Below are positions 9,622 to 16,262 of a stretch of DNA of 32,000 bases, piece by piece. The DNA is from Bacillota bacterium (GTDB lineage: Bacteria; Bacillota; Clostridia; Christensenellales; Christensenellaceae): assembly GCA_023408315.1 (NCBI GenBank), contig JAEYKI010000013.1:4721-36720 (forward strand), given 5' to 3'. The position numbers and the translations under genes are program-made. How positions within the stretch are numbered: position 1 is the stretch's first letter; each line of letters opens with the position of its first letter. Below the pieces are notes generated by a model, which had not been told where the DNA came from, did no database searches, and saw nothing but the letters and a program-made list of their open reading frames with translations.

Positions 9622-10740
9622 TCAGCTTAACCGAATGATCATCAGCGAGGCCCCGCAAGCATTGTTAAGCAAGGTTGCCGCACCAACTAGTAATGGCGCG
9701 AACATCTGAAGCGAAACGGTTGCGCCTACCGCCAGGTCAATTTCTATTTCGTTTTCATAGCTAGATACGGAGACCACCGGCGTTATGGTTGAGGCGGTAT
9801 TTGCTACCCCATTAATCATAAGCCTGGAACCCAGTAATAGTGACGCCGTGGTATTAATATTATACGAAAGCCTGTAGCGCCCAAACGTATTGATCGTAAA
9901 TACAGTATTCGCTCCATTTACCGTGATGTCTGCCGATAAAAGCTGTGCGTTGGGTAAAGGAATATTGGTGCCAGCCACTACAACTGTAATCAGGGGACCT
10001 GACGTGTTAGCCGCATAACCTGCTGTAGCCGTGGGATTCGGGCCTGTAGCGCCTGTCGCTCCAGTTGCTCCGGTAGAACCGATTGAGCCCGCCGCACCCG
10101 TCGCGCCACCGGAACCGTTTGCCCCAGTTGCTCCTACAGAGCCTGTTGCGCCCGTGGGGCCGCTTGGCCCAGTTGATCCTGTCGTGCCAATTGCGCCTGT
10201 CGCGCCTGTTGCGCCCGTTGCGCCTGTCGCGCCCGTTGCGCCCGTTGCGCCTGTTGTGCCTGTTGGACCGGTTCCGCCTGTGGTTCCTTGTGCGCCCACT
10301 ACGCCGGCGGCGCCAACACTACCCGTAACACCTGCCCCGCCAGTTGCGCCCGTCGCGCCTGTCGCACCGGTTATACCGGTATCACCTGTTGCGCCTGTTG
10401 CTGGCCCTGTCGGACCGGTTGCGCCCGTCGCGCCCGTTGGACCTGTTATTACAGGAGCGCTCAGCGCCGCTGCCAGTTTTGAGTTCATCATAAACTGGCC
10501 TTGCACCGTACTGTCCAATATATTGTGAACACTGTCGTTTACAGAAATTACGTCGTCCAGAGTGGCATTGCCCCCCGTCAACCCAGGCAGTGTTCCCAAT
10601 ACAAACTGCAGCTTTTCTCCTTCCGCGTTGAAGATATGGCTTAATCCAAGTTCCTCCAACGCTATGGAGGCTATAACCATATTAATTGCGTCTCCTCTTG
10701 AGATGGGAGGGCTTATGGCTGGAAAGGTCGGTTGAGACAT
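9622..10740 (-). CDS. Collagen-like (G-X-T repeat) protein A with BclA/ExsFA-type C-terminal head
   Basis: It has a ~95-aa N-terminal module ([34 protein letters not shown]) followed by a long [10 protein letters not shown].. stalk. The C-terminus ([16 protein letters not shown]...VSLQMF...[10 protein letters not shown]) resembles the TNF/C1q-like head of Bacillus BclA/BxpB. Confidence 0.8.
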
Positions 10741-10752
10741 TATCCATCCCCC

Positions 10753-11862
10753 CTAGCTCAAACGTATGATCGTTAAAGATGCGCCTGCGGAACTGCCAAG
10801 CAAAACGGCAGCACCCGCCAATCCGAATAACTGGAGAGATACCGTATCTCCCGCCGACATATCCAGCAGAATTTCGTTTGAAAATCCAGATAAGCCAATC
10901 AGGGGTATAATTGACGATTGTGTGTTTGCGCTTCCGTTAATTAAAAGCCTTGTTCCCATAATCAGGGAAGCGGTGGTGTTCACATGATAAGATAAACGGT
11001 ACCGTCCGGCAGAACCAATTGTAAACGTATCATTTGCTCCATTTACAGTAATGCCCGAAAGCAACTGTGAGTTGGGCAGAGGAACCAGAACACCGACTAT
11101 CGTCACGGTAATCGATGCCCCTGTCAAGTTTGCGGCAAAAGCGGTTGTTGCGGTAACATTTGTGCCTGTCTGACCCGTTGCGCCCGTTGCACCTGTCGTG
11201 CCCGTTGCGCCTGTAGCACCAGTTGCGCCAGTTGCGCCTGTCGGACCCGTTGCGCCTGTCGGGCCCGCCGAGCCTGTCGCACCAACTGAACCAGTTGCAC
11301 CTGTCGCGCCTGCCGCGCCTATTGCACCCGCTGCACCTGTTGCACCCGTTGCACCTCCCGTTCCGGTTGCACCCGTCGGACCCGTTACGCCTGTCGGACC
11401 CGTTGCGCCTGTCGGGCCTGCCGGGCCTGTTGAGCCTGTTGCGCCTGCCGCACCTATTGCGCCTGTTGCGCCTGTCGCACCTGTTGCACCCGTTGCGCCT
11501 GTTGCGCCAGTTGCACCTCCCGCAGGGCCTGTGGGGCCTGTTGCACCCGTTACGCCCGTTGCACCTTGCAGCTCGGAAGACGAAAGAGCACTTTGCATTT
11601 TTGTTTTAAAAAACAGAAGATTCTGGGCTACACCGTCCAATACAGATCTGACACTGTCATTGGTATCAAGAACATCTTGTACCGTTGCGGGCGGTCCGCT
11701 CAACCCCGGAATGGTGCCTAATACATACTGAATTTTTTCGCCTTCCGCATTGAGTATATGGCTTAATCCAAGCTCCTCATAAGCGATAGATGCAATGATT
11801 TGGCTAATTGCGTCGTCACGGGTTAGAGGAGGGCTTATGGTTGGAAAACTGGGTTGTGACAT
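10753..11862 (-). CDS. Collagen-like (G-X-T repeat) protein B, paralogue of A
   Basis: It has the same three-part architecture as A ([27 protein letters not shown]; G-X-T stalk; ..[15 protein letters not shown]...[10 protein letters not shown]). It lies 12 nt upstream of A, so the two are probably cotranscribed. Confidence 0.8.
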
Positions 11863-11917
11863 TTTATTACCTCCTAAATGGTTTAAAATTTATGTAACCA
11901 TTCTTTCGGCCAAATGG

Positions 11918-13021
11918 TCAGCCTGCTGAATTTTCCAATACCTTCCGTCTTTCATCAGCCCGCTCAAATTTTGGGTGCAACGCCAGCACTTGACGGTAAG
12001 CTTCCAATGCCGCTGTATTTTTTTGCTGTTTTTCATAACATTGTCCCAATTGAAAGAGGGCCTTAAAGCTTCCTACCCCTGTTCGGATCAAATAGCGCGG
12101 GTCTGATTCTCCCAAAACGAGAGCATAAATGAAGGCACGCGTCGCTTCATCATACCGGCCTAAGCCGTACAATATTTTGCCTTTATAATAATGCAGATCC
12201 ACATAATCCGGATAAAGGCTTAGGGCCTTTTCTATTGCGGGATACGCTTCTTCAAATTTTTTTTGTTCCACTAATATATCATATTTCAGTTTGTAAGCAA
12301 GCGAAGGCGGGACGACACCCTTCTGAACAAATTCCAGGATTACCTCGTTTACTGTTTGCAGCGCTTGCTCCAATTCGCCTAGCCTGTAAAGCTCGGCCGC
12401 CATATGGTATTCCAACCAGGCGTTGTCTGGTTCCCGCTCCCTCTGCCGTACAAGCGCCTCCATATTGCGTTGCGCTTTATATGCCTGTGCACTTTGCATA
12501 TATCCGTAATGCCCGATATAAAAAAAAGGCGTTGGCTCCATTTGAACGGTTTCTATTAAAGAGCTGATATCTAATTGCTCATGAATTGGACCAACGAAGC
12601 GCAGACCAATACCGTTTTTGAACAACCGGAACCCTGTGGAACGATAAGAGTTGTATGCGTCTGCCGGCTTATCCCCGCAATAGTGCAAGAGCCTGGTGCA
12701 TACCAGATCCGGATTTTGGACCTCCAGCATGTTTTGCAGGGCCGCAAAATCCAGCATGCAGAGTTCTTCATCCGCATCCATCCAGAGTATCCAGTCTCCC
12801 GATGCTTTTTTCAAGCCGAAATTGCGCGCTGCGGAAAAATCATCTGACCAGTCAAAATTGTAGACCTTTGCGCCCAGCGACTCACAGATCCCGCGGGTGC
12901 CATCTTGAGATCCTGCATCTATTATTACCATTTCGTACACATGGCTGCGTGCGCTTTCAATACAGCGCCGTATATTTTGCTCCTCATCTTTTACGATCAT
13001 GCACAAACTTATTTTGGGCAT
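11918..13021 (-). CDS. Family-2 glycosyltransferase with C-terminal TPR repeats
   Basis: [25 protein letters not shown]...WILWMDADEEL forms a GT2 fold with a DxD motif. The C-terminal half has TPR-like repeats (YYKGKILYGLGRYDEATRAF, LGQCYEKQQKNTAALEAYRQVLALHP). Confidence 0.8.
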   Translation of the reverse strand: MPKISLCMIVKDEEQNIRRCIESARSHVYEMVIIDAGSQDGTRGICESLGAKVYNFDWSDDFSAARNFGLKKASGDWILWMDADEELCMLDFAALQNMLEVQNPDLVCTRLLHYCGDKPADAYNSYRSTGFRLFKNGIGLRFVGPIHEQLDISSLIETVQMEPTPFFYIGHYGYMQSAQAYKAQRNMEALVRQREREPDNAWLEYHMAAELYRLGELEQALQTVNEVILEFVQKGVVPPSLAYKLKYDILVEQKKFEEAYPAIEKALSLYPDYVDLHYYKGKILYGLGRYDEATRAFIYALVLGESDPRYLIRTGVGSFKALFQLGQCYEKQQKNTAALEAYRQVLALHPKFERADERRKVLENSAG

Positions 13022-15225: not shown

Positions 15226-15289
15226 ACATCATATTTTAACGACTCCGGAAAGAGCCGCACCCCATAGTCTTATTAAATATTATTCTGAA

Positions 15290-15410
15290 ATTCTCTTCCT
15301 CGTACTCACTGTCATATCTGCCGCACATTTTTCACCACACCTTTCCATAAAAAGCGGTCTTCCTCCAAGAAAAGAAAGGTTTCCCCCTGCACCGTGCAGG
15401 TGTAGCGCGT
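15290..15410 (-). pseudogene. Fragment spanning the 3' end of a second 88-aa gene and the first ~13 codons of a second SRAP gene
   Basis: The minus strand reads ..RYTCTVQGETFLFLEEDRFLWKGVVK then ATGTGCGGCAGATAT (MCGRYDSEYEEEN..). This is colinear with 8085-8195. The TAA stop of the small gene is mutated, and homology is lost on both sides. Confidence 0.8.
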
Positions 15411-15443
15411 CGGTAGCGCTTTACAAGGTGCGGATTTGTTTTT

Positions 15444-16262
15444 TTAATGACTGAGCTTAGTTGCGCTGAAGGATATGCTTTTTGCTAACGGAAAGGTCAA
15501 GGTAACATCAGTAGGGCTAAAAAGTTTTAATTCCAAAAATGAATTTGCCGCCAATGAAATTATTAGATAATCTCCCATATTTGTTTGCACATCCGTTGAA
15601 AGTAGAAGTGAACGGTATACGTGTGGAATTGAACTGCCATTAAGGTCTACTCCCACTTGAACTGAGAGTGCTGAAGCGACCGGCAATATTGATATACTAT
15701 AGTCAATCCGGTAATCTCCAGCTTCCACGATGGTAATACCGCTTGTTGTTAAGGTAATATTAGCTGAGGCAGGCATCAAAAAGTTAAGAGGAAGAGAAGC
15801 TTTTGTCCCGCCTATAAAACTGACATTAAGCGGATTAACGTTGTCTTCGATGATTCCTCCATATGCTGCCGGAAACTCTGGCCCGGTAGCGCCGGTAGCT
15901 CCTGTACTACCCGTAGCGCCGGTAGATCCTGTACTACCCGTAGCGCCGGTAGATCCTGTAATTCCCTGCTGCCCTGAGGAAGCCAGCACACTCTGCATCT
16001 TATTCTTAGTAAGCAGTTGACTCTGGCCAATCGACTCTAACATTAACCTTACACTGTTATTGGCGGCAAGTACATCCTCCACAGTTGCTGGCGGACCACT
16101 GATACCGGGTAGGGTTCCTAAAATATACTGGAGCTTCTCGCCCTCCGCGTTAATGATGTGACTTAAAGCTAATTCCTCCATGGCAATAGAGGCTAAGATC
16201 TGATTTATGGCATCCTCCCTTGTGATCGGTGGATTGATTGCCGGAAAATTAGGCATAGACAT
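15444..16262 (-). CDS. Collagen-like protein D (short stalk, BclA-type head)
   Basis: [27 protein letters not shown] is the shared module. It is followed by a short GITGSTGATG.. stalk and a head with GDYRIDYSISI...SFLELKLF... Confidence 0.75.
   Translation of the reverse strand: MSMPNFPAINPPITREDAINQILASIAMEELALSHIINAEGEKLQYILGTLPGISGPPATVEDVLAANNSVRLMLESIGQSQLLTKNKMQSVLASSGQQGITGSTGATGSTGSTGATGSTGATGATGPEFPAAYGGIIEDNVNPLNVSFIGGTKASLPLNFLMPASANITLTTSGITIVEAGDYRIDYSISILPVASALSVQVGVDLNGSSIPHVYRSLLLSTDVQTNMGDYLIISLAANSFLELKLFSPTDVTLTFPLAKSISFSATKLSH

Follow-up and report, generated by a model that had tools for sequence, protein, structure and literature searches.

The A-ENA subunit is a protein of 101 amino acids (aa), composed of a 13-residue N-terminal latch and an alpha-helical hairpin, that stacks into an 8-nm two-start cross-alpha fibre on the spores of Bacillus thuringiensis israelensis, where autocatalytic intermolecular isopeptide bonds lock the fibre without the aid of a helper (PMC13111695). 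Homologues occur in Clostridia and Bacillales, with several clustered copies in many genomes, and the most abundant class of A-ENA fusions, in which the domain is joined to collagen and C1q parts, has been modelled as a 'ruffle' docked on single-domain protomers (PMC13111695). Here we describe a gene island that encodes four proteins of this architecture, A to D, and two glycosyltransferases, GT1 and GT2, in a stretch of 32,000 nucleotides (nt) from a Bacillota bacterium of the Christensenellaceae (GenBank assembly GCA_023408315.1, contig JAEYKI010000013.1, positions 4,721 to 36,720). The whole 32-kb stretch is called the window below, and coordinates are given on it. We consider that the island encodes four ruffle-type endospore-appendage proteins together with their probable glycosylating enzymes, a reading to which we assign a probability of roughly 70%.

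A Thr-rich collagen stalk with a trimeric TNF/C1q-like head is also the architecture of BclA of Bacillus anthracis and B. cereus and of L-BclA and F-BclA (9h38; PMC12357932). BclA is known to be glycosylated, and glycosylation is expected of F-BclA, near whose gene a putative glycosyltransferase gene is found (PMC12357932). The docking ends are different: BclA binds ExsFA/BxpB through an exosporium leader and F-BclA has a short hook peptide, whereas A to D carry a ~98-aa A-ENA domain with its predicted isopeptide chemistry. They are similar to the L-BclA and F-BclA tip fibrillae of ENA fibres in that the docking end mimics the contacts made by the fibre subunit itself. For the two enzymes, the closest described system is GmaR, which transfers N-acetylglucosamine (GlcNAc) onto Listeria flagellin and in which a tetratricopeptide repeat (TPR) region after the glycosyltransferase domain is thought to recognise the protein substrate (PMC9638930).

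Four paralogous proteins share an N-terminal A-ENA domain

All six open reading frames (ORFs) of the island are intact. GT1 and GT2 are divergent and placed between the collagen genes, with GT1-B-A running leftward and GT2-C rightward. B ends 12 nt upstream of A, and GT1 lies 55 nt upstream of B; C starts at a TTG codon, 10 nt downstream of a GAGGAG ribosome-binding site, and its first 35 nt overlap the 3' end of GT2. The genes and their parts are as follows.

9622-10740, minus strand: gene A, 372 aa; A-ENA domain aa 1-98 (nt 10447-10740), collagen stalk aa 100-235 (nt 10036-10443), head nt 9625-10035
10753-11862, minus strand: gene B, 369 aa; A-ENA domain nt 11569-11862, stalk nt 11158-11565, BclA_C head nt 10756-11157
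11918-13021, minus strand: GT1, 367 aa; glycosyltransferase family 2 (GT-A) domain and TPR repeats
13022-13178, no strand: spacer of 157 nt between the divergent GT1 and GT2
13179-14324, plus strand: GT2, 381 aa; glycosyltransferase family 2 domain and a weaker TPR region
14290-15225, plus strand: gene C, 311 aa, TTG start; A-ENA domain nt 14290-14583, stalk nt 14596-14787, Cys-rich head nt 14788-15222
15444-16262, minus strand: gene D, 272 aa; A-ENA domain nt 15975-16262, stalk nt 15876-15974, divergent BclA_C-like head nt 15447-15875

The first ~96 residues of A to D aligned unambiguously, with 37 invariant columns and a mean column identity of 72%. A six-frame hidden Markov model (HMM) search of the 32 kb returned exactly four copies of this module (E 1e-51 to 1e-53) and no short stand-alone copy in the window. 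When a profile of the four N-termini was searched against PDB sequences, it gave one strong match, chain A of 9ihh (E = 2.1e-21), in which query residues 2-94 aligned end to end with chain residues 2-90; the entry is titled 'Ex vivo spore-silk A-ENA fibers' and comes from Sleutel, Sogues & Remaut, Nat Commun 2026 (PMC13111695). PF26595 (A_ENA) was precomputed for gene C and for all 120 relatives among the matches listed from a large protein collection. The local Pfam, NCBIfam and PHROGs libraries gave no match to the N-terminal 96-99 aa, a silence that reflects their age, as PF26595 is newer than the local Pfam copy.

On these profile matches, the N-terminal module of A to D is an A-ENA domain and not a new or unrecognised one, and the architecture of the four proteins has already been published as an A-ENA type 1 fusion. 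The earlier note on this DNA, written from the sequence alone, was right to describe four collagen-like paralogues with a shared N-terminus of ~95 aa and to guess at an anchoring or assembly domain. Its view that the module was unrecognised does not hold. It had taken a match of the N-terminus to a well-characterised domain, such as a phage fibre anchor, as the outcome that would overturn its proposal, and the search with the N-terminus alone largely gave that outcome, though the domain found is that of a spore fibre subunit and not of a phage anchor.

We ran AlphaFold2 on C only (49-sequence alignment, mean predicted local distance difference test (pLDDT) score 80), and extended the result to A, B and D through the alignment. 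In the model of C, residues 1-14 are non-helical and extended, helices span residues 15-47 and 62-98 (pLDDT ~75-84), the stalk is disordered, and the beta-sandwich head is confident. The modelled tail and hairpin agree with the published latch and alpha-1/alpha-2 helices, and latch positions P4, F/I6 and P7 are conserved.

The published A-ENA isopeptide triads, each made of a donor, an acceptor and a catalytic Glu and five in all, were mapped onto A to D. Three of the triads have all their residues invariant in the four proteins: bond 1, from the N-terminal amine to Q44 with E41 as the catalyst; bond 2, from K42 to N64 with E39; and bond 3, from K84 to E29 with E28. Residue 2 is Ser in A to D, a residue before which removal of Met by methionine aminopeptidase should expose the N-terminal amine. 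Among 173 unique domains from 78 genome loci these three triads were 94-100% conserved, with Q44, E41 and K84 present in every domain, E29 in 172, E28 in 169, and K42, N64 and E39 in 163-164. As published A-ENA1 fibres are stable with only three bond types observed (PMC13111695), three intact triads are compatible with covalent assembly.

Stalks of A and B match in length, and the heads are TNF/C1q-like

The stalks match Pfam Collagen and consist of 45 G-X-Y triplets in A, 45 in B, 21 in C and 11 in D, with Thr at 69-82% of the Y positions. At 0.286 nm per residue, the predicted stalk lengths are ~39 nm for A and B, 18 nm for C and 9 nm for D. Thus the 'very different' stalk lengths of the earlier note apply to A and B versus C versus D, and not to A versus B, which are equal. 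A and B have 136 collagen residues each, both with a one-residue break after the fifth triplet, and yet the identity of these parts at the DNA level is only 63%. In 44 tandem pairs from other genomes, whose stalks span 16-50 triplets, the lengths of the two stalks were correlated (r = 0.86, median difference 0, permutation p < 1e-4), a statistic that overstates independence as the loci are phylogenetically related. The B-type gene preceded the A-type gene in 25 of 40 tandem pairs, which points to an old duplication. We believe that the matched stalks of A and B result from selection that favoured their co-assembly, A/B heterotrimers being the probable form, or that at least kept their heights equal.

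The stalk of D contains a tandem repeat.

15886-15960, minus strand: near-perfect tandem repeat of a 27-nt unit in the D stalk, 2.8 copies, 97% matches

Contig k141_47538 of ERZ27269197 is identical to the window over 21 kb except for one 27-nt indel, which is one unit of this repeat and encodes three G-X-T triplets; D is left with 8 triplets in the contig (locus L080, 11082-11873), as against 11 in the window. Stalk-length variation between assemblies, which the earlier note had suggested looking for, is seen in this indel; it could be a real slippage or copy-number polymorphism or an assembly collapse.

The heads of A and B matched Pfam BclA_C at 6e-40 and 3e-40. The head of D reached BclA_C at 1e-7, below the gathering score, and hhalign gave it a probability of 88.5% against A/B-type heads. 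The head of C contains 11 Cys (6-10 in its orthologues) and had no Pfam or PDB-profile match at the sequence level, where hhalign against the A and B heads returned E = 0.034 and a probability of 1.5%. In the model this head has pLDDT >90, and its best Foldseek match was the F-BclA C-terminal domain 9h38 (E 1e-5, target-normalised template modelling (TM) score 0.66); other matches were TNF-family ligands, with TM scores up to 0.73, and ExsFA. The C head is thus predicted to be a divergent TNF/C1q-like jelly roll at the fold level only, outside any Pfam family, and all four heads are TNF/C1q-like with this same limit for C. The earlier description of the heads stands for A and B (~1e-40) and, as a distant version, for D; the likeness of the Cys-rich C head to the others is one of fold.

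The C-head type is rare, as only 17 representative clusters matched it among 1.84 billion proteins. The matches are nearly all C-terminal in proteins of 116-404 aa, with one weak internal repeat in a 2,472-aa protein. A word-indexed search with the C-head profile gave three matches, and the orthologues of C were collected with the full-length C query. We also observed the C-type head fused directly to A-ENA, without collagen, in several loci of uncultured clostridial metagenome-assembled genomes (MAGs; Oscillospiraceae/Oscillibacter and others). This stalkless fusion is found in L017, L020-L024, L029, L031 and L035-L038 among other Oscillospiraceae loci, where it is divergent from two tandem collagen fusions.

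The G-X-T stalks, the BclA_C heads of A and B and the adjacent glycosyltransferases would also suit classical BclA-type nap glycoproteins of the exosporium, attached to an ExsFA/BxpB-like basal layer by an N-terminal targeting motif. We regard this explanation as very improbable: an entire A-ENA hairpin domain occupies the N-terminus, the likeness to BclA is confined to collagen and head, and no exosporium-leader family was returned for A to D by NCBIfam at E≤0.1, the presence of such a model in that library being unconfirmed. The broader analogy of the earlier note, to glycosylated spore-surface collagen proteins, is retained in the reading as ruffle-type appendage proteins. An LPXTG adhesin of the Scl/Lcl type was considered separately and rejected, as scores were far below the cut-offs and the proteins have no signal peptide or LPXTG motif.

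GT1 and GT2 are related to GmaR in their catalytic module

Domain searches agreed with the earlier note in finding two enzymes that combine a glycosyltransferase family 2 domain with TPRs. TPR families were matched in both, a DAD motif is present at residue 82 in GT1 and residue 81 in GT2, and the two are 34% identical over the catalytic domain. For both enzymes the closest solved structure was the GmaR catalytic domain 22ao (GT1 2e-30, GT2 3e-26), followed by SunS/ThuS (PDB 7msn, 7msk) at E about 1e-13 to 1e-15; the matches to the 22ao chain, a catalytic domain of 204 residues, cover only residues 2-197 (GT1) and 3-97 (GT2).

GT1 and GT2 share with GmaR of L. monocytogenes (PDB 22ao; PMC9638930) the order of a family 2 domain and then TPRs and a soluble nature, and GmaR directly glycosylates a filament-forming protein. 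They differ from it in size, as GmaR has 637 aa in four domains, whereas GT1 (367 aa) and GT2 (381 aa) are without the linker and antirepressor domains. With SunS/ThuS, which act directly on a peptide, they share the family 2 domain and a helical C-terminal region; unlike SunS/ThuS they have no glycocin-type precursor peptide nearby and score far below the family cut-off. Membership of the SunS family (TIGR04195) was rejected at 66.1 and 61.5 bits versus a cut-off of 350. The two enzymes are therefore best described, from their profile matches, as putative GmaR-like protein glycosyltransferases in the catalytic module, and not as orthologues of GmaR or SunS.

The cassette of fusions and glycosyltransferases is conserved in other genomes

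When one genome per species was scanned, more than 580 A-ENA stretches were returned, and the neighbourhoods of the best 78 loci were compared. Eight of these 78 have the divergent arrangement of the window, in which a GT2-like gene followed by a C-like gene faces away from a GT1-like gene. A B-like gene followed by an A-like gene is also present in seven of the eight (L002-L007, L030), the eighth (L008) ending at a contig end, and L030 has an additional fourth, D-like gene. The syntenic carriers, which belong among others to the Lachnospiraceae, include Anaerotaenia torta DSM 100431, two MAGs of Anaerocolumna, one of Syntrophomonas and several of unclassified Bacillota. Beyond these eight, two metagenome contigs contain a minimal core of a GT1-like gene divergent from a GT2-like and C-like pair. 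Overall, the glycosyltransferase pair is syntenic with A-ENA fusions in L002-L008, L030, L094 and L095. In variant loci of the Oscillospiraceae a single GT2-like gene accompanies a head-only A-ENA fusion and two tandem collagen fusions.

The genes that flank the island in the window were not conserved beside the cassette in the fetched loci, which indicates that the cassette itself is the unit. Elsewhere it sits in chromosomal contexts outside any integrative and conjugative element (ICE). The link to enzymes of the GT2-TPR type made in the earlier note thus extends, as a syntenic cassette, to at least eight other genomes. Glycosyltransferases are not mentioned in the main text of the A-ENA paper (PMC13111695), and with the gene near F-BclA already described for F-ENA (PMC12357932), the conserved link is an extension of published work and not a surprise.

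A single-domain A-ENA gene was absent from the window and from ±10 kb of the syntenic clostridial cassettes. This would fit a self-sufficient fibre or nap, in which the four fusions polymerise through their own A-ENA domains into a covalently cross-linked core set with collagen trimers, in the manner of a bottle-brush or of a BclA-like nap; the triads responsible for the bonds inside a protofilament are intact, and A-ENA polymerisation is autocatalytic and helper-free. We consider such self-assembly possible but unlikely, since the published model docks ruffles onto single-domain protomers, the steric fit of a collagen trimer on every third subunit is only assumed, and single-domain A-ENA genes of the same clade occur elsewhere in clostridial chromosomes and beside fusions in Paenibacillus. 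The closely related stand-alone A-ENA proteins of clostridial metagenomes have 98-109 aa, and their genes lie among housekeeping genes far from fusions or beside a non-collagen fusion; in the Paenibacillus loci (L052, L061, L070) single-domain genes stand beside both fusions and glycosyltransferase genes. By analogy with these genomes, an unlinked gene for the major subunit is plausible in the source genome of the window.

Expression signals and a model for assembly

Three matches to the pattern AC-N16-17-CATAnnnTA were found on the two strands of the window (64 kb), one of them in the GT1/GT2 spacer.

13113-13140, plus strand: sigK-like motif AC-N17-CATATTCTA, ending 38 nt before the GT2 ATG

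A sigK-like motif was present on one or the other strand in 7 of 9 orthologous spacers between the two glycosyltransferase genes, compared to a mean of 0.26 spacers in mononucleotide shuffles, none of 2,000 of which reached seven. Patterns for sigE and sigF/G-type promoters had no match anywhere in the window, and generic sigma-70 and terminator scans were at background. As motif evidence only, the sigK-like motifs support late mother-cell expression, as for bclA. No signal peptide, transmembrane helix or LPXTG motif was found in any of the six island proteins, from which we infer that they act in the mother-cell cytoplasm.

In the model that we favour, sigK-type promoters in the spacer would drive GT1-B-A and GT2-C at a late stage in the mother cell, and D would be transcribed separately. 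In the cytoplasm of that cell, where all six proteins would act, GT1 and GT2 would use nucleotide sugars directly to O-glycosylate the Thr-rich stalks and perhaps also the heads. The heads would then trimerise and zip up the collagen helix as in BclA, to give fibrils of ~39 nm (A and B), 18 nm (C) and 9 nm (D); co-assembly of A and B is probable, as proposed from their matching lengths and single helix break. Next, the three A-ENA domains of each trimer would stack on an A-ENA cross-alpha fibre, whose major subunit would be encoded elsewhere in the genome, and lock covalently and autocatalytically. As a result, the fibre on the spore surface would bear glycosylated fibrils of several heights, with several types of head, and would serve in the clustering or adhesion of spores.

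Several observations weigh against this model. In bond 4, from K77 to E78, A to D have G, N or S in place of the Lys donor. In bond 5, the inter-protofilament bond from K76 to Q82, the residues are Q…K in B, C and D and Q…N in A, and in the 173 domains position 76 was most often Q (101) and position 82 most often K (86). The donor and acceptor of bond 5 may have swapped sides, and the inter-protofilament link may differ or be absent. The absence of a single-domain A-ENA gene from the window counts on the same side, as does the strict sigK-like motif, which lies in the window only on the GT2-C side. The matched stalk lengths fit separate A and B homotrimers of equal height equally well. Finally, the island is surrounded by recombination scars (described below) and could be a recent acquisition whose function is not yet integrated, although none of its six ORFs is broken.

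Compared with published A-ENA type 1 fusions (PMC13111695; 9ihh; PF26595), the proteins have in common the three-part architecture, the latch and hairpin, the three triads and the multi-copy clustered genes. The examples detailed in the available text of that paper are from the B. cereus group and Pasteuria, whereas the present ones are clostridial, with closest relatives of the Lachnospiraceae type. Here, moreover, bond 4 is lost, the polarity of bond 5 is apparently swapped and the hairpin loop has 4-5 additional residues. A pair of GmaR-like glycosyltransferases forms part of a conserved cassette, one head is Cys-rich and without a Pfam family, no single-domain subunit is adjacent, and the genes are carried by an ICE.

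A-ENA fibres have been experimentally studied so far only in Bacillus thuringiensis, where they hold spores and toxin crystals together. The loci described here point to a second setting in anaerobic Clostridia (Lachnospiraceae, Oscillospiraceae), in which A-ENA is mostly fused to collagen fibrils and accompanied by GmaR-like glycosyltransferases. To our knowledge, the spore surfaces of such anaerobes are largely uncharacterised. The new elements are the clostridial cassette with its two GmaR-like enzymes, the length-matched A and B, the pattern of retained triads, the family-less head and the carriage on an ICE. They provide candidate spore-surface glycoproteins of anaerobes and a candidate enzyme-substrate pair for O-glycosylation of collagen repeats, and cultivable carriers include Anaerotaenia torta, Kineothrix alysoides, Anaerosporobacter mobilis and Clostridium puniceum.

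A block of 23 nt shared by B and C

The earlier note had reported a 23-nt block identical in B and C, and it is present at both sites.

11741-11763, minus strand: 23-nt block in B
14389-14411, plus strand: the identical block in C

The block encodes the invariant SHILNAEG segment of the A-ENA alpha-1 helix, the most conserved peptide, and in the same region 17-nt runs are also shared by A/B and A/C. When synonymous codons were redrawn from the codon usage of the island, a run of at least 23 nt arose in some pair in 1.5% of trials (P = 0.015), under a null that ignores common ancestry. With 23 nt, the run is at the lower limit of what homologous recombination requires. Apart from the run itself, nothing supported a gene conversion or an inversion that involved B and C: there is no sign of recent conversion, and the gene order is conserved across families. 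With this conserved order and the 63% identity of the A and B collagen DNA, recombination between paralogues (head swapping or inversion of the glycosyltransferase pair), which had been conceived from this block, is not supported.

The island lies inside a conjugative element

To the left of the island are type I-C cas genes, then genes for a Y-family polymerase, a small ORF and an SRAP peptidase. To the right is ssb, followed by a conjugation module that runs past the window end and encodes an NlpC/P60 hydrolase, a VirB4-like ATPase, a coupling protein, a DUF3801 protein, a relaxase and MobC. The edges of the island are marked by two copies of the 3' end of ssb.

8832-8996, minus strand: left island edge, truncated 3' end of a foreign ssb allele, then scraps of the polymerase gene
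16942-17106, minus strand: right island edge, 3' end of the intact ssb gene (16951-17343)

These two segments form a 165-nt direct repeat, 77% identical, that brackets the island, and the right boundary of the island falls exactly at the ssb stop codon (16950/16951). An empty site was found in L082 and L083, from other samples, which encode an identical SSB protein with a convergent SRAP gene 48 nt on. Identity to this empty site was 99.4% for the right-hand ssb copy, 77.6% for the left remnant and 97.8% for the SRAP flank. The island also holds fragments of genes of the element: 278 nt of the polymerase gene (9012-9289), 92% identical to 6947-7224, and, between C and D, an inverted 119-nt fragment of the junction of the small ORF and the SRAP gene (15290-15408), 83% identical to 8075-8197. 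From these alignments, the ~8-kb cassette is recognised as cargo of the ICE, gained by recombination with a related element. The internal scraps suggest that recombination took place several times, and D may have come in, or moved, on its own.

The location inside an ICE, together with matches of PHROG tail-fibre families to A to D (up to 1e-35), raised the explanation that the proteins are phage tail fibres or surface adhesins of the mobile element, serving host recognition or mating-pair formation. The best PHROG stretches fall mainly on the collagen repeats and a few reach the flanks, the N-terminal module alone matches none, and neither phage structural genes in the window nor a secretion signal or wall anchor in the proteins was found. 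An ICE variant without the island exists, which argues that the island is not a core conjugation function, and the same cassette occurs in chromosomal contexts outside ICEs. We therefore hold this explanation to be highly improbable, and keep to ruffle-type proteins of endospore appendages. In that case, surface traits of such a kind can move on conjugative elements.

A more far-reaching, and doubtful, idea is that the ICE bears a spore-coat accessory kit, in which a self-contained set of collagen fibrils with covalent anchors, made of an A/B heterotrimer and C and D homotrimers and glycosylated by two dedicated glycosyltransferases, would re-decorate the spore appendages of the recipient. If true, the kit would offer three heights and four head types, either self-polymerising or locking onto any resident A-ENA fibre, and a single transfer would change spore adhesion or aggregation among anaerobic Clostridia.

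Other features of the window

Just upstream of ssb are palindromic copies (17363-17504) related to a longer array at 29939-30223, where 5.4 copies of a 53-nt unit (91% matches), built on the palindrome ATGTACC…GGTACAT, lie upstream of a gene with HTH_36/DUF6017 domains. These repeats may be iterons or operator sites of the conjugative element. The ORF at the right end of the window encodes a helicase, for which no record with that exact product was found.

The type I-C CRISPR-Cas operon at 235-6111 comprises cas3, cas5, cas8c and cas7, with cas4, cas1 and cas2 past the window edge (locus L084); no CRISPR array was found in the window. The operon, at 37-45% guanine-cytosine (GC) content, abuts the conjugative element at 52-60% GC, and the left end of the element is probably between 6111 and 6601. 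Next to the mobilisation genes, a 292-aa protein (27755-28633) has a cytidine/deoxycytidylate deaminase domain (MafB19-like), and an AcrVA2-like gene is present further along the element (locus L092, 115-1137). The deaminase and AcrVA2-like genes may be anti-defence cargo.

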